From an uncultured bacterium (GTDB lineage: Bacteria; Fidelibacterota; Marinisomatia; SCGC-AAA003-L08; GCA-002704045), in assembly GCA_964345035.1 (NCBI GenBank), contig CAYFPO010000007.1, forward strand, positions 2,444 through 66,443: 64,000 nt of DNA. Reading direction: 5' to 3'. Positions 13,785 to 57,175 of the stretch are shown here, one piece after another (within the stretch, counting starts at the first letter, position 1; each line of letters starts with the position of its first letter). Both the position numbers and the translations under genes were made by a program. The notes under the pieces were generated by a model. It was not told the DNA's origin, did no database searches, and worked only from the letters and a program-made list of their open reading frames with translations.

Positions 13785-13933
13785 AATTTTATGTAATATA
13801 CACTACAAAATAGGGTATCTTTTTCTTTGCTAAGAAAAATGAACCCTATAATTTAAAAAGTTATATCGAGGAAATGAATAATCCTTTATTCAATTTTCAT
13901 ACAAAATTCTCTTTTATAAAATCAGGAGGCAAC

Positions 13934-16792
13934 ATGAAGTCCATAGATGTCAAAAGTGTAATAATCGGAATGCTATCAATGGTAATCATTTTTATGACTG
14001 TTGGTATGCGCCAGACTGTAACCAATATGGGTGATATAGGTGTCACCTCTATTACCGTGATCGGCGAGGATGATGAAAAAGCATTGTTCATCGGCAGCGG
14101 AGGTGGTGGAAACGGTTATTTAAAAACGTATAATAAATATGGTAAAACCAGCGCATATCTGGGAACCGGAGGAGGCGGAACAGGTGGTTTCAAAATCTAT
14201 AACAGAGATGGTAAAACTCTGGCCTTCATTAGTGGATCTAAAGAAGGGAGAGGATTTCTGGAAATTTCAAATTCTAATGGAGATGCTGCAGCAAAATTAC
14301 TCGCAGATGATAATGATAGTGGACAATTGAGATTAAATGATGCGGATGGCAATATGGCATTTGATTCGGATAATGCAATGACTGGAGATGCATCTTTAGG
14401 TGATGTAACTGTTAATTCACTTTCTGTAATTGATGCAGAAGATGCACTGAAAGTGTATCTGGGTGTGGATGATGAGAAAAATGGGTATCTCCGGGTCACT
14501 CATGAAATTGAAGATTATTATTATCCATCAGATGAACCGGAAATTGAATTAGATACTTTTGGTGACATTTCAGTAAAATCCATTACAATTACTGATAGTG
14601 ATAACAATACCAGGGCATTCTTAGGATTGGATGATTCCCAAAATGGTCAATTAAAACTCTCAGATACTGAAACAGAAACTGTATATCCTCTGACTGAAGC
14701 TGAGCCGGAATTAGATTTCGGGGATATTCGTGTATCGTCCCTTACTGTAGTAAACGAAAATCAAAGTGCAATAGGATATTTTGGGCCATCTGATGAGGGA
14801 AAAGGCAATATCCGCACTTTGGATATGGAAGGAAGTGTACTGTTTTCATCAGATGAAACATCCAAAGTTGAAGGAAATCTTGGAAATATCCGTGTTAATT
14901 CCATAACTGTCCAGGATGGTGCAGAAAATGAGGTAATATACCTTGGTACTGATGAAGCTTTAAATGGACTCATCAGTGTTGCAAATGCAGATGGAGATGT
15001 TACATTTACAACTTCAGATCCTGCTAAAGAGAGTAAAGAGAAAAATCTGGGGGACATCACAGTAAATTCTATTACTGTAATGAATGAATATTTCACACCT
15101 ACTACATTTATCGGAAATACACCTGAGGGAAGTGGCCGTTTGGAAGTAAATGATTTTACGGGAAATTCAATTTTTAATTCGGATCAGGCAGTACAGACGG
15201 GTGAAGAATTTGGAGAGATCCAGGTGAGATCACTTGAGATAGTTAATCAAAATCAAGAAACCATGATGACACTTGGCACCGCACAAGGACAATTCGGTGT
15301 AATGAAAGCCAGGGATTCCGCCGGAAATGTGATCTTTTCATCTGATGAGATACCCAAGGGTGGGGATGGTCAAATTACCGGTGACGATATTGTTGTGAAT
15401 TCCATTACACTAAAAAATGAAAATGATGAGATAACCGGATTCCTTGGAAATTCCGAAGATGGAAACAGTGAGTTAAGGATATACGGTACTGATGAATCTG
15501 AAACAGTATTATTAGGGACAAACTTCAGTGGACACGGATTTATGAGGACGTATAATACAGATGGTACTCAGACATTGTATATGGGAACTTCTGAAAGTGG
15601 CGACGGATTATTAAAAACGTATAGTTCAGAGGGAAAAAAGACTACTTATTTGGGTTCTAACAAAAACAATACAGGCATGTTGAACACCTATAATGATTTT
15701 GGAGATATGGCGGCAATGATTGGTACATCATCTAATAACAGCGGCACTACAAAAATGTTTGATTCAAACGGTGGATTGATTTTTTCAGTTAATGATACTT
15801 CTGGCAATACTACAACTAAAAATCTTACAGCAAAAAGTGTAACCGTAGTAGATGGTTCGGGTGCAGGGAAAGGATTTATTGGTGTTAATAATTTCGGTAA
15901 AGGATTTATCAGTACCAATAATGTATATACTGACACAATTAGGTCTGAATATGGCAATACTACTAAAATTCAAGCCAATCAGGTCGCAGTTAAAAATGAC
16001 TACGGTGAGGAAAGAATTTTCTTGGGAGTAAATCAAGAAGATATAGGTTTTATAAAAACCAATTTATCCAATACAGATATTGACTTTCTTTCAACTGAAT
16101 CGGCTAAAAATACAGAAGTCCTGGGAGATATTCAGGTTTCCTCTTTATCCATCACTACCCCGGAGGGAGATACCCGTGTATTTTTGGGGAGAAATAAGGA
16201 AGGAAATGGAATCATTACCACTCATAATGAAATAGGCGCCCAGACTAACTTTCTTGGCTCAGATATTGACGGTAGTGGTAAACTACAGATATCAAATACA
16301 ACTGGACAAAAAATTGCGACAATCGGAACAGGAGTGAATGATGGAGGTTCATTGACTACATACAATCGAATGAATGAGATAACTGCATCATTGGGTGTCA
16401 GTGAAGATGGTGTTACCGGTCACCTCACTGGAATTGATCACGTGGAAACATTTAATCAAATTGGTTTTAAAACCGCTTACTTTGGGAACGGAAGTAGTGA
16501 TGAAGGACTGTTACGTGTATTTAATGCAGAAGGTGTACAATCCATGTTGATGGGGACCTTATCCACAGGTGGTGGAATTATCACATCAAACACTAAAGGA
16601 CTGATTACATCCTTTCTTGGAACCAGCGGTAGTGATGGCGGTCATTTGATCACTTATAATTCTTATGGTAAGAAAACATCCTTTATGGGTACAAATAAGC
16701 ATAATGACGGGATGGTGATCCTACGGGATAAAGGTGGCAATATCGGATGGGGAAAAGATGGGAGAATTCCGGCATACTACGCAAAACAATAA
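13934..16792 (+). CDS. membrane-anchored repeat protein (single N-terminal TM, then ~36 degenerate 22-29-aa Gly/Asn/Thr-rich repeats)
   Basis: ORF 13874..16792. I prefer the ATG at 13934, preceded by AGGAGG. TM helix SVIIGMLSMVIIFMTVG. Repeats are of the form G.G.L.(T/V)YN..GK.T.YLGT.... and of the form (L/F)GDI.V.SITV.D......(Y/F)LG.....G.L.... No enzymatic motif is recognised. Confidence 0.75.
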   Translation: MKSIDVKSVIIGMLSMVIIFMTVGMRQTVTNMGDIGVTSITVIGEDDEKALFIGSGGGGNGYLKTYNKYGKTSAYLGTGGGGTGGFKIYNRDGKTLAFISGSKEGRGFLEISNSNGDAAAKLLADDNDSGQLRLNDADGNMAFDSDNAMTGDASLGDVTVNSLSVIDAEDALKVYLGVDDEKNGYLRVTHEIEDYYYPSDEPEIELDTFGDISVKSITITDSDNNTRAFLGLDDSQNGQLKLSDTETETVYPLTEAEPELDFGDIRVSSLTVVNENQSAIGYFGPSDEGKGNIRTLDMEGSVLFSSDETSKVEGNLGNIRVNSITVQDGAENEVIYLGTDEALNGLISVANADGDVTFTTSDPAKESKEKNLGDITVNSITVMNEYFTPTTFIGNTPEGSGRLEVNDFTGNSIFNSDQAVQTGEEFGEIQVRSLEIVNQNQETMMTLGTAQGQFGVMKARDSAGNVIFSSDEIPKGGDGQITGDDIVVNSITLKNENDEITGFLGNSEDGNSELRIYGTDESETVLLGTNFSGHGFMRTYNTDGTQTLYMGTSESGDGLLKTYSSEGKKTTYLGSNKNNTGMLNTYNDFGDMAAMIGTSSNNSGTTKMFDSNGGLIFSVNDTSGNTTTKNLTAKSVTVVDGSGAGKGFIGVNNFGKGFISTNNVYTDTIRSEYGNTTKIQANQVAVKNDYGEERIFLGVNQEDIGFIKTNLSNTDIDFLSTESAKNTEVLGDIQVSSLSITTPEGDTRVFLGRNKEGNGIITTHNEIGAQTNFLGSDIDGSGKLQISNTTGQKIATIGTGVNDGGSLTTYNRMNEITASLGVSEDGVTGHLTGIDHVETFNQIGFKTAYFGNGSSDEGLLRVFNAEGVQSMLMGTLSTGGGIITSNTKGLITSFLGTSGSDGGHLITYNSYGKKTSFMGTNKHNDGMVILRDKGGNIGWGKDGRIPAYYAKQ

Positions 16793-18069: not shown

Positions 18070-20133
18070 ATGGGTAATATTAAAATTATATTATTAGTAT
18101 TTTGCGCTTCAATAACGCACATCTATGGACAATCGTATAATATGGAGTTGTTAGGGCATCTGCCTTTTGACCAGGAATGTTCAGATATCACCGGTTTTTA
18201 TCAGGATGGTAGAGAGTTTGCAGTCGTTGGTTTATATAACGGTTCTGTATTTGTGGATGTTACAGATCCAGGTGAACCATTTGAAGTTGGCAGGATAACA
18301 GGAAGTAACAGCATTTGGAGGGATTTAAAATACTGGAATCGCCATGTTTATATCGGAACAGAAGCAAATGATGGAGTCCAGGTGGTAAGTGTTGATGATC
18401 CAGACACTCCGATACTGGTAAATTTAATTAATGATTTTACCAGCAGTCATAATATCCACGTAGCAGATGGATTTTTATATGTCGTGGGTGCAGGTGATCA
18501 TCATATCTGGATTTATGATCTATCAAATCCAGAGAATCCGACACTAGCCGGCACCTGGGATGAGGAATATATCCATGATCTCCATGTGTATAACAATAAA
18601 GCGTATTGTGCGGCGATTTATTCCAGTACGGTCTATATATTGGATGTATCTGACAAAAATTCTATAAATACACTTACCAGTTGGTCTTATGAAGGGAAAG
18701 CCCACGACTGTGCTGTTACCAGCGATGAGACCATTCTGATCACCGGAGATGAAATGACAGGAGGAAATATAAAAATTTGGGATATATCTGATTATGACAA
18801 TATTCAATTATTGAGTGAATATATGGTTGACCCTGCACATTCAGTACATAATGTATATAATATAGATAATCTGGTTTATTGTTCATATTATGCTGACGGG
18901 ACCAGAGTTTTGGATATCTCTGATCCTGAATATCCGATTGAAGTTGGGTATTATGATACAAGTGAATTGGAATCATTATATGTGGGGAATTGGGGGGTTT
19001 ATCCATTTTTACCCAGTGGAAATATTATTTCAAGTGATATAGAAACCGGATTATATATTACCCGATTAACAGGGCTGTCAATTATCCACGACCCGATAGA
19101 AGATGTATCTCACGAAGCAGCCAACTATCCGATAGAATCAATAATCAGATCATTTTCCGGCGAAGTTGCAGCTGCTTTTGTTTTTTACCGGTTATTAGGT
19201 ATCGGTAATGAATCCTGGACCTCTATTAGTTTATCTGATGATGGAGATGGAAACTATTCAGGTGAAATTCCACAACAGATATTAGGTACGGTTATTCAGT
19301 ATTATATTTATGCCACTAATGAATTTTATGAAGAGTCTACATTTCCACCTGAAGGAATTATAGATCCTCTGCTATTTACAGTTGGTCAACTACCCGAAAT
19401 ATATACAGAAAATTTTGAAGTTGACTCCGGTTGGTCAACTGATCCATCCGATGATGCATCCTCAGGTATCTGGGTTAGAGATGAGCCCATTCCAACTTAT
19501 TTGGGTGACATTAATGTCCAGCCGGGCACTGACCACACACCTGACGGCACAAATTGTTTTATCACAGGAAATACAGATAATCCATATGAACCCGGTTTAG
19601 ATGACGTAGATTCAGGAACAACCACATTGATAAGTCCGGTTTTTGATTGTTCATCCTATGATCATGCTATGTTAACCTATTGGCGGTGGTACACAAATAA
19701 TACGGGTGATAATCCCAATGAAGATTACTGGCAGGTTGAGATTTCCAATGATTTCGGGTCAACTTGGAGCACTCTTGAAATGACAAATCAATCAAATGCA
19801 GATTGGACATTTCACAGGGTGATTTTGTCTGACTATGTAGAAATTACAGAAGGAATACAGCTAAGATTTAAAGCATCAGATTACTTCAACCCATCTTTGG
19901 TTGAAGCAGCAGTAGATGATATTGCAATAGCTGTGTTCGGTCAGCCTGTCATACTTGGTGATGTAAATTTTGACATCTCAGTTGATATTTTGGATGTTGT
20001 ATCCATTGTTCAATTCATTCATGGTAATATTGAATTTAATGCTTTTGAAATACAGGCAGCAGATTTTGATATGGATGGAATTGTAAATGTCCTGGATATT
20101 GTTGCTATTATTGATTTTATTTTGGATAATTGA
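18070..20133 (+). CDS. secreted LVIVD-repeat (choice-of-anchor-B-like) beta-propeller protein with a MAM/anchor-J-like domain and a C-terminal dockerin module
   Basis: 687 aa with a signal-like N-terminus. It has repeated LVIVD-type strands (VFVDVTDP, VQVVSVDDP, IWIYDLSNP, VYILDVSD, IKIWDISD, TRVLDISDP). The C-terminus is GDVNFDISVDILDVVSIV....AADFDMDGIVNVLDIVAIIDFIL, two dockerin-like Ca-loop/helix repeats. Confidence 0.75.
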   Translation: MGNIKIILLVFCASITHIYGQSYNMELLGHLPFDQECSDITGFYQDGREFAVVGLYNGSVFVDVTDPGEPFEVGRITGSNSIWRDLKYWNRHVYIGTEANDGVQVVSVDDPDTPILVNLINDFTSSHNIHVADGFLYVVGAGDHHIWIYDLSNPENPTLAGTWDEEYIHDLHVYNNKAYCAAIYSSTVYILDVSDKNSINTLTSWSYEGKAHDCAVTSDETILITGDEMTGGNIKIWDISDYDNIQLLSEYMVDPAHSVHNVYNIDNLVYCSYYADGTRVLDISDPEYPIEVGYYDTSELESLYVGNWGVYPFLPSGNIISSDIETGLYITRLTGLSIIHDPIEDVSHEAANYPIESIIRSFSGEVAAAFVFYRLLGIGNESWTSISLSDDGDGNYSGEIPQQILGTVIQYYIYATNEFYEESTFPPEGIIDPLLFTVGQLPEIYTENFEVDSGWSTDPSDDASSGIWVRDEPIPTYLGDINVQPGTDHTPDGTNCFITGNTDNPYEPGLDDVDSGTTTLISPVFDCSSYDHAMLTYWRWYTNNTGDNPNEDYWQVEISNDFGSTWSTLEMTNQSNADWTFHRVILSDYVEITEGIQLRFKASDYFNPSLVEAAVDDIAIAVFGQPVILGDVNFDISVDILDVVSIVQFIHGNIEFNAFEIQAADFDMDGIVNVLDIVAIIDFILDN

Positions 20134-52494: not shown

Positions 52495-53445
52495 ATGAAA
52501 TTGTGTCAGATAGATGAATTTAAAGTAGGGAAATCTGTTCAGGGGTTTTATTTATGCAAAGAAAAACAAGTAAGAAACACGCGGAATGGTGATTTATACC
52601 TTGATTTATTACTGGTGGATGGTTCGGGAAGTGTTCACGCAAAATTATGGGATCATGTTGATACGTTCATGAACAGATTTATAAAGGGGGATGCAGTTGC
52701 AGTGAAGGGAATACCTACAGAATATCACAATGAAATTCAGTTAACTATTACCCAAATTAATAAAGCCACAAATGAAAAATATAACAAGTATGGATTTAAC
52801 CCTTTACTGCTGATTCCGTCTTCAGAAATTCCACCTGAAAAATTATGGAAAGAACTCCAATCTATAATTAAAAAGATTACTGACTCAAATGTGCAGAATC
52901 TGTTAAAAATAATCTTTGACAAGCATAGAGAAATAATTTCCATATTACCTGCGTCGGTACACCATCACCATCCGGTACGTGGTGGATTTCTGGAACATAT
53001 TGTATCTACAGGAAGCATTGCAGTTAAGTTAAAAAACCAATATAAAGATGTGAATAATGATTTAGTAATTGCAGGTGTGTTGTTACATGATATTGGAAAA
53101 ATTAATGGTATGACCGGTGAACTTGAATCTGATTATACTTTAGATGGTCATCTCATCGGTCACACAGTGCTCGGTTGGGAAATTGTGAAAAATGCAATTT
53201 CTGAAATTAAAGAGTTTGATGATGTTTTGGCTAAAAAGCTGGAACATATCATAATTGCCCATCAGGGAAAGCAAACAGACGGGGCTCCTCGGATTCCTAA
53301 ATTTCCTGAAGCATTATTGGTTCATTATATTGACGAGATCGATGGTAAAATTGACCTAATGATACGAACTATTAAAGAGGACAATAATTTAGAGGAATGG
53401 ACGGACAAAAGAAATATATTTCGTACTCAAATCTGGAAAAAATAG
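52495..53445 (+). CDS. yhaM: 3'-5' exoribonuclease YhaM-like (OB fold + HD domain)
   Basis: 316 aa. N-terminal OB-fold segment (NG..YL.L.L.D.SG...AKLWD), then an HD domain (HHHHP..GG.LEH, LLHDIGK). Confidence 0.8.
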   Translation: MKLCQIDEFKVGKSVQGFYLCKEKQVRNTRNGDLYLDLLLVDGSGSVHAKLWDHVDTFMNRFIKGDAVAVKGIPTEYHNEIQLTITQINKATNEKYNKYGFNPLLLIPSSEIPPEKLWKELQSIIKKITDSNVQNLLKIIFDKHREIISILPASVHHHHPVRGGFLEHIVSTGSIAVKLKNQYKDVNNDLVIAGVLLHDIGKINGMTGELESDYTLDGHLIGHTVLGWEIVKNAISEIKEFDDVLAKKLEHIIIAHQGKQTDGAPRIPKFPEALLVHYIDEIDGKIDLMIRTIKEDNNLEEWTDKRNIFRTQIWKK

Positions 53446-53500
53446 TTCAAATATTTAACAGCAGATTGGTTAAATTTCATTTAAAATAACGAAGGGAAAA

Positions 53501-54025
53501 ATGAAAAATATCAAAAATATTACAATTACCGGCATCATACTGGTTGCGGTAGTTTCAAGATTTATACCACATCCGCCGAATTTTACGCCTATTCTTGCAA
53601 TTTGCATGTTCAGTGGGATCATGTTTCAGGATAAAAAATTAAGTTTCCTGATTCCAATTATTATGATGGTAATTAGTGATGCATTTCTTGGATTTCACAA
53701 TAATTTGTTTTGGGTGTATGGAACATTACTTCTCATAGTTGGTATGGGCATATATATGCAAGATAAAGTTAAATTACCCACTGTAATTTTAGGTGTAACA
53801 TCAAGTTCGATAGGCTTTTTTCTAATCACTAATTTTGGTGTGTGGCTGGGGAGTATTTCATATCCCCAAACATTGTCAGGATTAGCATTATGTTATACTG
53901 CTGGGATTCCTTTCCTGAAAAATACAATCCTAAGTAATTTCCTGTTTTCCGGGATATTTTTTGCCGTATATAGTATAGTAAGTAGAATCATCCCGGAATT
54001 GAAATTCAATCCTCAACAACATTAA
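53501..54025 (+). CDS. integral membrane protein of unknown function (5-6 TM)
   Basis: 174 aa and strongly hydrophobic. The N-terminus ..VSRFIPHPPNFTPILAICMFSG recalls a conserved uncharacterised transporter-like family (possibly DUF6580, from memory and unverified). Confidence 0.5.
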   Translation: MKNIKNITITGIILVAVVSRFIPHPPNFTPILAICMFSGIMFQDKKLSFLIPIIMMVISDAFLGFHNNLFWVYGTLLLIVGMGIYMQDKVKLPTVILGVTSSSIGFFLITNFGVWLGSISYPQTLSGLALCYTAGIPFLKNTILSNFLFSGIFFAVYSIVSRIIPELKFNPQQH

Positions 54026-54026
54026 T

Positions 54027-55571
54027 TTGAAAAAATATAATCATTTCTATTTCAAAAACCGCTCTTATCCGGAGCGGTTTTTACTTTTAGTACTATTCAT
54101 CATCTCTTCATTACTAATCGGAAATGAATCTCAATTTATATCTATTCAAACAGATCAGACAGGACAATCACAGTTTTTGATTGATATAAATTCACCGGGG
54201 TATTTCCCCGATATTAAAATTGGATCTATTCGATATGATGGTACCTTAAATCTACCTATAGGAATCTACAAAATTACTGAATTTCCTCACTCATCAAATT
54301 CAGATACAAACGAAGTAAGAAATTTTTTCAACTGGAAACAAGGCGATTTTGAGTATAGAGAAATCAGCATTGGAGCAAAGTCTGCAAGTATTGATAGCGG
54401 CAGGATTCGCTTTTCCGGATTTGGCAGGTCGTTTCCCGGGAATGACGGCAGATTGGGACCACCCGGCTCTGATTATAAAGGAAATGTACTACAGAATTAT
54501 TTATTAGAATATGAAAAGGAATATAGAAATGGTGAATTTACTTCCGGATTCGCCTACCATAAGGAAAATGTGGGTTTACCGACAGTTGGTTCTTCAAACG
54601 GATTTAGAAACACTGAGTCTTTCCATCTAAGTACCGATTACAATGTTAAATTGAAAAAAATGAACATCGTCTCCTCATCAGCTTTCCAAATTGGAACTTT
54701 TGACAGGGAGGGGCATACTGCAGAATATTTGGTTAAATGGCTGGATGTTTCAGGAGATTATGAACTGAATGATAATAATTGGTTCATCATTCAATATTCT
54801 GGTAAAAAACTATCGGTTGAATCAAAGGAATTACTCCAGGATATTTCAAGTATTGCAATTAATCATACAAAACTAAATTATTTTTATCATAAACCAACTT
54901 TTGGAATTTCAGTAAGCATTGATGCTCTTGGGTCAACAGTTTTTCCGGGAATTGAGATTAGTAAAAACCTGTTTGATTTTCAATTTTCCATAAAACGCAG
55001 TATTGCCAATGAAATGAATACTACGGATTCTTTAAAATTCACCAATGTGTCTGTAATAAATAATAATGTTTCAGTAAAATATAATTCAGATCGCTTCTTG
55101 CATTTTAATACAAAAATTACCGGGATGTATTTAGAATGGGATAAATATCAATTCCCCGGAATTTCAGGTCAATTCCAAATTTCTCAACCATGGATATCTT
55201 TATCGGGAGAAGGTGTCTATTATAATTCTCAGGATATATTGGTAAGTCGATATGGACATTTATCTGCTAATCTGCATCCGGTTTTATGGTGGACTGACAG
55301 ATACAGATTTTCTGCAGGGATAGAAGGCATTTATTATCATTTGCCAGGTACATTTACTCTTGATCTAAATTCCATTACCGGTGTTACAAATGAAATAGCA
55401 AACCCTGCAAATGTTGGATTTATTAATTGGAAATTTGGATTGAAGGTAAAAAATTTCAGTCTGACATATTATACAAGTTTCCTGTCAAATCAGGAAATAA
55501 ATATATCACCAGCCATTATCCCGATAGAGCCTTTCTCATATTTGGCAGTTGATTGGCGATTTATAAATTAA
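54027..55571 (+). CDS. hypothetical protein, probable outer-membrane beta-barrel
   Basis: 514 aa, TTG start directly after the previous stop, hydrophobic N-terminal segment. The C-terminal two thirds show alternating aromatic/polar strand patterns (..YLAVDWRFIN at the end). No family is recognised. Confidence 0.4.
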   Translation: MKKYNHFYFKNRSYPERFLLLVLFIISSLLIGNESQFISIQTDQTGQSQFLIDINSPGYFPDIKIGSIRYDGTLNLPIGIYKITEFPHSSNSDTNEVRNFFNWKQGDFEYREISIGAKSASIDSGRIRFSGFGRSFPGNDGRLGPPGSDYKGNVLQNYLLEYEKEYRNGEFTSGFAYHKENVGLPTVGSSNGFRNTESFHLSTDYNVKLKKMNIVSSSAFQIGTFDREGHTAEYLVKWLDVSGDYELNDNNWFIIQYSGKKLSVESKELLQDISSIAINHTKLNYFYHKPTFGISVSIDALGSTVFPGIEISKNLFDFQFSIKRSIANEMNTTDSLKFTNVSVINNNVSVKYNSDRFLHFNTKITGMYLEWDKYQFPGISGQFQISQPWISLSGEGVYYNSQDILVSRYGHLSANLHPVLWWTDRYRFSAGIEGIYYHLPGTFTLDLNSITGVTNEIANPANVGFINWKFGLKVKNFSLTYYTSFLSNQEINISPAIIPIEPFSYLAVDWRFIN

Positions 55572-55573
55572 AT

Positions 55574-56860
55574 TTATTTCATTAACAGCATTTTACCGGT
55601 TTTAGTGCCACTTGAAGTAGATAATCTGTAAAAATAGGGTCCTGATACTTCATTTTTAAAACTAACTTTCACCGAATTCATCCCAGGTGAAAATATAGAT
55701 TGTTTCTCTGCAAAAATTTGTGTACCAAGTGCATTATATACAGATAATGTCACATTATCTGGTGTATCCAGAAAAAATGAAATTGTAGTTTCCGGATTGA
55801 ATGGATTTGGATAATTTCCAAATAGTTTAAATTCATCCGGAGAGATTATTTGTTCGGTAATGGATAATGGAGAATTCCAAAATGCAAAGGAACCGGGTAT
55901 GCCTCCAACTGAATGCCTTACCACTTCATTGCTGTTAGAATCCAGAACCACCACTTCATCCGGTGCAATAAAATCATCTGAAAGTCCCAGATAAACATAT
56001 TCACCGTTTGCAGCCATTGAATATACATACTCAAAATCTTCAGTACCTATTCTGGTTTCTGGAATAATTTCCAGATTTTCATCCAGCTTAGCAATACCAC
56101 CATTCCAGGTTCTATACACCGAACCCTGATAGGTAGTTATATCACCGCCACATAAAGCCAAACTATTCACACCATAATTCTGGATTGTAATTTCTCCTGT
56201 GGATAGATTAATGGATGATGTGCCGGTAAATTGTGTCCAGGACTCGTCATAAAATATGCGTGCGATATAAAGTACGCCATCGTGCAGCACCATTTGGCCG
56301 GGTCCCGTACCTACATCATAAGTAGTCACAACCGTGTTGGATTCCGGGTCAATTGCAGCCACCAGGTTCCCATCACTCCAATCGGAATGTAGTACGATGG
56401 ATACATAAATCAGATTACCGTCTGTTACCATCATCTCAGGTAATCCGTCAACCGGAATGGAAGTGATGAAATTATAAGTTGTCATATCAATTATAGAAAT
56501 TGATTGTGTATCCCATTCGGTTAAATATCCGTAATTGCCTAAAACAAGCAATTCTCTTGGCACTGAATTATTAGTGTCTATTGTTTGGGAATAGGTAATG
56601 CTTCCGTCATCTTCCTCAATATCATACACACGAATCTGACTTGAGCCATTCAGGATAACGTAGAGTGTATTGTCAACAACGGTCATAGATTGCCCGACAT
56701 TCCCGATGGGATTGTCTATTGCTTCTGTGATTTCAAAATTTCCATTTTCAACCCACAGAGAAGCATCATTTGAGTAGAAGTCCCCTTCACACAGAATAAA
56801 TGCAGATTCAGCTGAAATTGCAATGGAAATCATAAAGATTAATTGGATCAGTATTTTCAT
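55574..56860 (-). CDS. secreted YncE/YVTN-like beta-propeller protein with T9SS-type C-terminal sorting domain, controlled by a cobalamin riboswitch
   Basis: The track ORF extends to 56887, inside the riboswitch terminator. The ATG at 56860 has AAAGGAG upstream and gives the signal peptide MKILIQLIFMISIAISAES. Propeller-like strands include FILCEGDFYSNDASLW, LYVILNGSSQIRVYD and GVLYIARIF. The tail is GNYPNPFNPETTISFFL...LSVYNALG...GPYFYRL.... Confidence 0.75.
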   Translation of the reverse strand: MKILIQLIFMISIAISAESAFILCEGDFYSNDASLWVENGNFEITEAIDNPIGNVGQSMTVVDNTLYVILNGSSQIRVYDIEEDDGSITYSQTIDTNNSVPRELLVLGNYGYLTEWDTQSISIIDMTTYNFITSIPVDGLPEMMVTDGNLIYVSIVLHSDWSDGNLVAAIDPESNTVVTTYDVGTGPGQMVLHDGVLYIARIFYDESWTQFTGTSSINLSTGEITIQNYGVNSLALCGGDITTYQGSVYRTWNGGIAKLDENLEIIPETRIGTEDFEYVYSMAANGEYVYLGLSDDFIAPDEVVVLDSNSNEVVRHSVGGIPGSFAFWNSPLSITEQIISPDEFKLFGNYPNPFNPETTISFFLDTPDNVTLSVYNALGTQIFAEKQSIFSPGMNSVKVSFKNEVSGPYFYRLSTSSGTKTGKMLLMK

Positions 56861-56873
56861 TTTTACTCCTTTA

Positions 56874-57045
56874 AACAAAAAACCCACAATCGTGAATCAA
56901 GTGGGTAATTTAAATTTCCTGACCTTAATCCACGAAGGTAATATAGAAAGTGAAAGTATCTGGCTTGTCCCATGCAGGGGCTTCACAGTTGCGGGTCAGC
57001 TTCGGATTTCAACCGAATTCCTTCCAGTTAGTATGATTGAATTTA
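56874..57045 (-). promoter_or_regulatory. cobalamin (B12) riboswitch with candidate terminator
   Basis: The minus strand reads ..TAACTGGAAGGAATTCGGTTGAAATCCGAAGCTGACCCGCAACTGTGAAGCCCCTGCATGGGACAAGCCAGATACTTTC.. This matches the conserved core (GGGAA..GGTGaaAatCC....C.G..CCCGC.ACTGT) and a B12-box-like AAGCCAGATAC. It is followed by ACCCAC-N13-GTGGGTTTTTTG and AAAGGAGTAAAAATG. Boundaries are approximate. Confidence 0.75.
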
Positions 57046-57175
57046 CAGGCTAAGTTACTACCTCAGAAACAATTATTTTTTCAATTTATTATGAAATTAC
57101 CCAATGATTTATACCTGTTTATCCAAGTAACTTATAAGCTGATTTTAAACTAATATTTTACTAAAGGAGGCTAAA

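Follow-up and report, generated by a model that had tools for sequence, protein, structure and literature searches.

A short-P6 cobalamin riboswitch in the leader of a btuG-like gene at a Marinimicrobia locus that has lost btuB

The btuB leader of Escherichia coli is said, after work by Nou and Kadner in 1998, to be a translational riboswitch with a secondary transcriptional effect that depends on early coding sequence. The architecture of class Cbl-II cobalamin riboswitches was defined by Johnson et al. in 2012 and is summarised in PMC7367189. The Priestia megaterium metE corrinoid riboswitch has been dissected as a transcriptional OFF switch, and its register of L5 NCCCG with L13 CGGG was proven by mutagenesis (PMC10327014). 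In Bacteroides, riboswitch-btuB-btuG loci have been described together with BtuG1-3 of B. thetaiotaomicron (PMC6143338, PMC10404256), and the structures 8BMX and 8BMY are BtuG2-cobalamin complexes (PMC10404256). BtuG is a lipoprotein that was described, from a survey of gut strains, as exclusive to Bacteroidetes (PMC6143338).

We scanned the window, meaning the whole 64-kb stretch of DNA analysed here, with Rfam 15 at gathering thresholds and read positions 57300-56700 of the minus strand. The matches were three tRNAs and a single riboswitch, which was RF00174 (Cobalamin) at positions 57083-56934 of the minus strand. With 39.8 bits (E 1.4e-6) this match exceeded the gathering score of 31.5, and it covered the full model (positions 1-189). 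The original prediction had proposed a cobalamin riboswitch for minus-strand positions 56874-57045, with an RF00174 covariance-model scan as the check, and the significant match agrees with it. The motif that it quoted, GGAAGGAATTCGGTTGAAATCCGAAGCTGACCCGCAACTGTGAAGCCCCTGCATGGGACAAGCCAGATAC, is present at 57025-56956 (-). The interval does hold the riboswitch, but its 5' limit does not stand, as the aptamer starts about 40 nt further upstream. For the alignment we used the window and six relatives, namely locus L040, which lacks btuB as the window does, and the btuB-linked loci L001, L002, L003, L007 and L043. The following features were assigned.

56934-57083, minus strand: cobalamin riboswitch aptamer in the short-P6 (class-II-like) form, from the RF00174 match and the alignment with six relatives
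56952-57025, minus strand: core four-way junction P3-P6, from the cmscan alignment and RNAalifold on 7 sequences
57025-57021 and 56956-56952, minus strand: P3, GGAAG with CUUUC, 5 bp
57017-57001, minus strand: P4 and L4, UUCGG-UUGAAAU-CCGAA
56998-56990, minus strand: P5 and L5, with L5 ACCCG at 56996-56992
56988-56986 and 56962-56960, minus strand: P6, CUG with CAG
56980-56969, minus strand: P6 extension, a 3-bp CCC/GGG hairpin
56966-56956, minus strand: B12-box-like element AAGCCAGAUAC
56922-56939, minus strand: P13 hairpin, conserved in the alignment, with ACCUU at 56939-56935, L13 CGUGGAUU at 56934-56927 and AAGGU at 56926-56922

The cmscan alignment and RNAalifold both place the conserved core sequences in a four-way junction with a T-loop in L4. 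RNAalifold on the seven sequences recovered P3, P4, P6, the P6 extension and P13, with compensatory changes in five pairs (two of them in P3 and one in P4). In the P6 extension, both sides had changed in four of the 7 aligned sequences. This extension measures 11 nt in the window, against 64 in the RF00174 model. Because the long P6 extension (P7-P11) is absent and only the 3-bp CCC/GGG hairpin is found, class Cbl-I was ruled out. The element appears class-II-like by its short P6 extension, a J1/3 bulge and a P2 arm being indistinguishable in its unconserved 5' region. Six of the 12 pairs of the modelled P1 are non-canonical in cmscan. Inspection by eye and RNAalifold of the seven-sequence alignment yielded no conserved P1 or P2 beyond the 5-bp P3 helix, and the roughly 50 nt 5' of P3, where P1 and P2 would lie, are not conserved there.

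The modest RF00174 score is explained by the short P6 extension and the poorly paired P1. Since btuB-linked relatives of the same short-P6 form also score only 40.5-49.8 bits, the low value is a trait of the subclass and not a sign of decay. The minimum-free-energy (MFE) structure of the whole 241-nt leader was no better than those of shuffled sequences (z 0.16), and this fold is non-native. Compared with RF00174 (clan CL00101) and Cbl-II, the window has the same P3-P6 junction, GGAA...GGU.AAAUCC T-loop, L5 NCCCG, B12-box-like AGCCAGAUAC, short P6 extension hairpin and predicted L5-L13 kissing loop to P13. It differs from RF00174 in that L5 is one base shorter than the consensus, the middle base of the kissing loop is bulged or mismatched, and P1 is poorly formed. 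Judged by family match and anatomy, the window RNA is a genuine cobalamin riboswitch that belongs to RF00174 and has the short-P6 form; as an RNA there is nothing unusual about it, and standard annotation can detect it.

P13 adjoins the 3' end of the aptamer. Its ACCUUCG is invariant in 7/7 aligned sequences, and the stem is kept. The L5-L13 pairs in the window are G56992-C56934, C56993-G56933, C56994-G56931 and C56995-G56930, with U56932 bulged; without this bulge the kissing loop would contain a C-U mismatch. The register is the one supported by the metE mutational data (PMC10327014). L5 (A/U)CCCG occurs with L13 CG(U/A)GG in the window, L040, L001, L003 and L002, and L5 ACGCG occurs with L13 CGCG, a contiguous 4-bp match, in L007 and L043. 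L5 and L13 change together, which is covariation across the pseudoknot as read from complementarity in seven sequences. In the btuB-linked relatives, the P13 3' arm GAGGU is also the btuB Shine-Dalgarno sequence, and the start codon lies 0-6 nt downstream.

Downstream of the leader lies one gene, and two further open reading frames overlap the leader.

55574-56860, minus strand: regulated gene of 428 aa with a signal peptide, a BtuG-like seven-bladed beta-propeller and a T9SS type A sorting domain, from profile and fold
56858-56872, minus strand: Shine-Dalgarno AAAGGAG (56872-56866) and ATG (56860-56858), from reading and from M1/K2 conservation
56823-57053, plus strand: spurious 76-aa ORF over the riboswitch, from a mechanical listing, uncalled in public assemblies and in L040
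56861-56887, minus strand: spurious extension of the propeller ORF at its 5' end, beginning with GTG and overlapping the 3' arm of the terminator-like hairpin

The C-terminus of the gene product matched Por_Secre_tail in Pfam (2.4e-7) and TIGR04183 (1.1e-9), which is the T9SS C-terminal sorting domain. A phmmer search of the PDB gave weak matches to BtuG structures. With a profile of 29 homologs, the BtuG2, BtuG3 and BtuG1 chains matched at E 1e-37 to 2e-30 over nearly the whole propeller; for 8bn0, 8bmx and 8bmy, E was about 1e-37 over positions 15-327. The AF2 model had a pLDDT of 86.9, and its top 16 Foldseek matches in the PDB were all BtuG1/2/3 (E 4e-18 to 1e-13). Target-normalised TM scores were 0.75-0.82 for 15 of these 16 and 0.43 for the 626-residue BtuG1 chain 8blw_B. 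By profile and by predicted fold, the product is BtuG-like. The gene behind the riboswitch is thus B12-related: it is BtuG-like here, and in relatives the genes at this place are btuB and then btuG.

Trp194 of BtuG2 aligns with W161, a near-invariant position of the family, and this is a likeness to the Bacteroides proteins. Trp272 and Tyr316 of BtuG2 are without an aromatic match, the former falling in an insertion that has no counterpart in the family profile and the latter aligning to a non-aromatic position. The window protein would bind B12. The N-terminus, MKILIQLIFMISIAISAES, has a cleavable SPI-type signal peptide and no lipobox; C24 aligns with an Asn in the first strand of BtuG2 and is not placed as a lipoprotein anchor. 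As a homolog of BtuG, which captures B12, the product would be secreted or attached to the surface, with a type IX tag replacing the lipid anchor. The Bacteroides loci and this one are alike in having a B12 riboswitch before a BtuG-type seven-bladed propeller, and the window's relatives share the riboswitch-btuB-btuG order. The window differs from them in its phylum, Marinimicrobia, in its SPI-type signal peptide and T9SS domain (a dockerin in some homologs) without lipobox, and in the absence of btuB from the locus.

The nearest homologs, which were found in Marinimicrobia/'Neomarinimicrobiota' MAGs, have T9SS tails or, in some cases, dockerin domains. In many propeller homologs (P0006, P0007, P0009 and others), a dockerin type I domain takes the place of the T9SS tail. 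The window itself encodes, at 18070-20133 (+), a 687-aa LVIVD-repeat protein with a dockerin. These observations hint at cohesin-dockerin-style surface display in these Marinimicrobia.

The assignment of ATG 56860 as the true start, made in the original prediction, holds: M1 is invariant and K2 nearly so (at least 90%) across 10 aligned homologs, and AAAGGAG stands 5 nt upstream. For these two reasons ATG 56860 is the better start. Public gene calls (P0001, 419 aa) begin at Met10 (window 56834-56860 (-)) and are probably nine residues short. The two open reading frames over the leader had been suspected of being artefacts, and the comparisons bear this out. None of five independent public assemblies calls the 76-aa ORF, and it is not called in L040 either. 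The GTG that begins the 5' extension has an equivalent in L040 that is out of frame with the ATG. GTG 56887 was also considered as the ancestral btuB start and rejected, because the ancestral frame is a different one that reads ...GGG UUU UUU GUU UAA and ends at the UAA.

Between P13 and the Shine-Dalgarno sequence we found a hairpin followed by a U-run.

56877-56906, minus strand: terminator-like hairpin, ACCCAC, 13-nt loop and GUGGGU, followed by U6; -10.5 kcal/mol

The stem of 6 bp (4 G-C) is formed by ACCCAC (56906-56901) and GUGGGU (56887-56882), encloses a loop of 13 nt and is followed by U6 (U-run 56882-56877); the free energy of -10.5 kcal/mol includes flanking A-U pairs. A simple promoter/terminator consensus scan called no terminator at this hairpin, since its 13-nt loop exceeds the limit of 8 used in that scan. 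By consensus standards the terminator is weak and atypical. Its loop and adjoining bases are complementary to L13 and the P13 3' arm: UCGUGGAUUAAG (56935-56924) pairs with CUUGAUUCACGA (56901-56890) over 12 bp, and ACCU with GGGU. The energy of the antiterminator duplex is -18.3 kcal/mol, compared with -8.9 +/- 2.0 when the 13-nt loop was shuffled, and 0 of 5000 shuffles reached the observed value. The odd length of the loop is accounted for by this antiterminator complementarity. In the fold model, the probability of the terminator stem was 0 without constraints and 0.97-1.0 when P13 was forced and L13 was made unavailable, a constraint that mimics the kissing loop.

The design modelled in this way is a terminator/antiterminator OFF switch. 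With a corrinoid bound, L5 (ACCCG) would kiss L13 (C-G-(bulged U)-G-G) and lock P13; the ACCCAC/GUGGGU hairpin with U6 would then form, and transcription would stop ahead of the gene. In the absence of ligand, L13 and the P13 3' arm would pair with the 13-nt loop of the hairpin over 12 bp and the P13 5' arm with the 3' arm of the hairpin, an antiterminator that would let RNA polymerase enter the gene. Ligand binding, formation of the kissing loop, the response to ligand and termination by RNA polymerase are each predicted from this model. As modelled, the element is most likely a transcriptional OFF switch that controls the gene of a BtuG-like propeller exported by T9SS. The two-state folding supports the hairpin and T-run as the expression platform, as originally proposed, and the hairpin, the T-run, AAAGGAG and ATG 56860 are all present where they had been reported. 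That account did not mention the kissing-loop hairpin P13/L13 or the antiterminator, nor did it name the regulated gene or recognise the hairpin as a remnant of the deleted btuB (see below).

The metE riboswitch (PMC10327014) and the window follow the same logic: the kissing loop stabilises P13, ligand leads to the terminator, and without ligand the 3' side of P13 joins an antiterminator with the terminator region. They differ in that the window antiterminator pairs mainly with the terminator loop and not with the 5' arm, and also uses L13. In addition, the metE aptamer is of the long class I form, whereas the window design is known from modelling. A promoter scan upstream of the leader found no convincing sigma-70 or Bacteroidetes-type promoter. 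The spacer from the thioredoxin start to the aptamer (57084-57175 (-)) is about 72-76% identical to that of L040, with synonymous sites saturated, and presumably holds the promoter(s).

A locus search from a 10-sequence alignment gave 34 genome loci that encode relatives of the propeller. In 32/34 of them an RF00174 match lies on the same strand about 2.1-2.4 kb upstream, and these homologous aptamers ahead of the same protein family further uphold the minus-strand riboswitch. The riboswitch precedes btuB-btuG in these 32; a 33rd locus, L006, is cut by a contig end. The gene between riboswitch and btuG in the relatives encodes a TonB-dependent receptor of about 700 aa, for which the best NCBIfam matches are B12 receptor models. 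The shared gene order is TrxB-Trx, riboswitch-btuB-btuG, a 505-aa protein, a DUF6580 protein and an HD/OB protein. In L002 and L007 the flanks of the window are found on both sides, and L001 shares the upstream TrxB-Trx flank within the limits of its contig. The window has the flanks of its relatives, but btuB (about 2 kb) is missing. A tblastn search of the 64-kb window with the L001 BtuB gave no match, and no TonB-dependent receptor was found among the large ORFs of the window, so the btuG-like gene has no btuB beside it. Several separate sample assemblies of the same organism show the btuB-less junction again, and so does L040, which comes from another project and whose BtuG-like protein is 71% identical; the junction is therefore not an assembly error.

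Local alignment to L001 located the deletion and the corresponding hairpins of the relatives.

56872-56873, minus strand: deletion scar, from local alignment to L001
L001 1925-1957; L002 1775-1808; L003 1925-1955; L007 1868-1896; L043 440-470: hairpin and U-run inside btuB

Window 56918-56873 aligns with L001 1915-1961, the first btuB codons, including 13 identical bases, GGGTTTTTTGTTT, which in L001 encode the start of the BtuB signal peptide. Window 56872-56845 aligns with L001 3977-4003, comprising the last codons and stop of btuB and the start of btuG. This alignment shows that the window 'terminator' derives from a hairpin inside the btuB ORF of the relatives, and the AAAGGAG Shine-Dalgarno sequence from what was the end of btuB. 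The leader was inherited from a riboswitch-btuB-btuG operon in which a deletion of about 2 kb took out btuB, beginning at about codon 18 and reaching into the last codons, with the old in-ORF hairpin kept and reshaped.

The btuB-linked relatives have a strong hairpin and U-run (-11 to -18 kcal/mol) within the first ~20 btuB codons. The same element is found in L008, L012, L013, L023, L025 and L026, and the Flavobacteriaceae loci (L027-L034) are without it. Its U-run encodes a Phe/Ile-rich signal-peptide start. L003 and L007 have no alternative start after the hairpin, which suggests riboswitch-controlled translation coupled to a terminator masked by ribosomes. The E. coli btuB leader resembles these btuB-linked relatives, and not the window, in that the Shine-Dalgarno sequence is sequestered by a ligand-stabilised hairpin; it also resembles them in having a terminator-like element within the first btuB codons. 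In the window, unlike E. coli, the btuB ORF is gone and the element cannot depend on btuB translation.

In the fold model, the btuB-linked relatives form the hairpin whatever the state of P13. In both btuB-less sequences, the window and L040, a more stable alternative competes with P13 and the hairpin. This comparison of two sequences with five suggests, as a hypothesis, that the platform was rewired from translation-linked to RNA-only control. A third btuB-less relative was sought, and the candidate L044 has just 63 nt upstream. L015 was rejected as a comparable btuB-less locus, because the propeller there is the C-terminal part of a 1134-aa fusion ORF (L015 1808-5212, on a MAG chromosome); no cobalamin riboswitch or btuB was found upstream of it. 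A pattern scan of metagenomes returned three loci, of which one was a duplicate and one was truncated.

The aptamer of L040 (596-742) scored 22.8 bits, below the gathering score, and differs at 8/47 core columns. Its core substitutions are GCUG to ACUG, ACUGU to ACUGG and AGCCA to AACCA. L040 keeps P13, L13, GUGGGUUUUUU and a strong Shine-Dalgarno sequence. Regulation in the L040 lineage may be dispensable or decaying.

It could be argued that the window aptamer is a relic by descent, with a btuG-like gene that is constitutive or attenuated by a leaky hairpin and shows no B12 response. In favour of this, the ancestral UUG is lost and the P13 3' arm has no start codon behind it, the sister lineage L040 has fallen below threshold through changes in GCUG, ACUGU and AGCCA, and the terminator is weak. 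The core of the window, however, is as intact as in the btuB-linked relatives: it differs at 3 of the 47 columns on which those five relatives agree, where leave-one-out controls gave 0-4, and one of the three differences keeps a G-U pair. Four-fold sites between the window and L040 are saturated (33-35% identity, with 28% expected by chance), whereas the aptamer core is 77% identical and the linker with P13 80%. Conservation of the leader despite this saturation indicates purifying selection since the window and L040 split, after their shared deletion. The 12-bp antiterminator complementarity also lies beyond chance, and a relic would not keep or evolve one. We consider a relic unlikely.

A riboswitch that is functional but translational, in which the ligand-bound fold hides AAAGGAG and the U-run hairpin has no terminator role, would fit the relatives, where the P13 3' arm is the btuB Shine-Dalgarno sequence directly ahead of the start codon; in one MFE structure of the window, moreover, the U-run pairs weakly with AAAGGAGUAAAAA. 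Yet about 50 nt separate the Shine-Dalgarno sequence of the window from P13, no stable ligand-linked helix includes this sequence, and the sole pairing over it is a weak A-U/G-U helix. Locking of P13 instead moves the hairpin with U6 from a probability of 0 to about 1, the signature of transcriptional control, and we hold translational control here to be very unlikely. The modest bit score and the non-significant z-score of the fold might also suggest a chance resemblance in AT-rich intergenic DNA, with the 76-aa or the GTG-extended ORF as the real feature. The score is nevertheless above the curated threshold, homologous aptamers stand at the same position in dozens of loci, covariation is present, and the ORFs are neither called nor conserved. 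These comparative data refute the chance reading, to which we give practically no weight. Taken from sequence comparison and fold modelling, the window, part of a Marinimicrobia genome, probably has a functional short-P6, class-II-like cobalamin (corrinoid) riboswitch in the 5' leader of its btuG-like gene, which is monocistronic.

On the other side of the btuG-like gene and convergent to it, window 52495-55571 (+) encodes an HD/OB-fold protein, a DUF6580 membrane protein (5.9e-51) and a 514-aa protein. The 514-aa protein had no match in Pfam, NCBIfam or the PDB, and the homolog search detected no homolog beyond the protein itself. L002 and L007 share the trio, with a counterpart of the 514-aa protein that is 26% identical, and the L040 contig holds just its end. 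Elsewhere in the window, a 972-aa ORF at 13874-16792 (+) matched no Pfam family at E <= 1e-5.

For annotation, the riboswitch replaces two false ORF readings and the start codon of the downstream gene is fixed. The unusual points of the locus are contextual, namely the loss of btuB, the reshaped platform and a BtuG that is neither from Bacteroidota nor a lipoprotein. The locus adds BtuG-type B12-capture proteins outside Bacteroidota that are exported by T9SS or bear dockerins and are not lipid-anchored. It is a natural example of a riboswitch that outlives the deletion of its first regulated gene, with an expression platform apparently remodelled from translational to transcriptional control.

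We tentatively propose, as a possibility that is less likely than not, that this lineage lost btuB and kept the riboswitch and a type-IX-secreted BtuG under purifying selection, that the platform was rewired from Shine-Dalgarno sequestration with a translation-dependent in-ORF terminator to an RNA-only terminator/antiterminator, and that the product is a B12-regulated, free-standing corrinoid scavenger of a 'cobalophore'-like kind. If so, the scavenger would supply a transporter encoded at another locus, or would keep B12 away from its competitors in the sea. Marinimicrobia are an abundant ocean group, and B12 is a micronutrient that is traded there. A secreted, B12-repressed binder in this phylum would therefore bear on marine B12 ecology.
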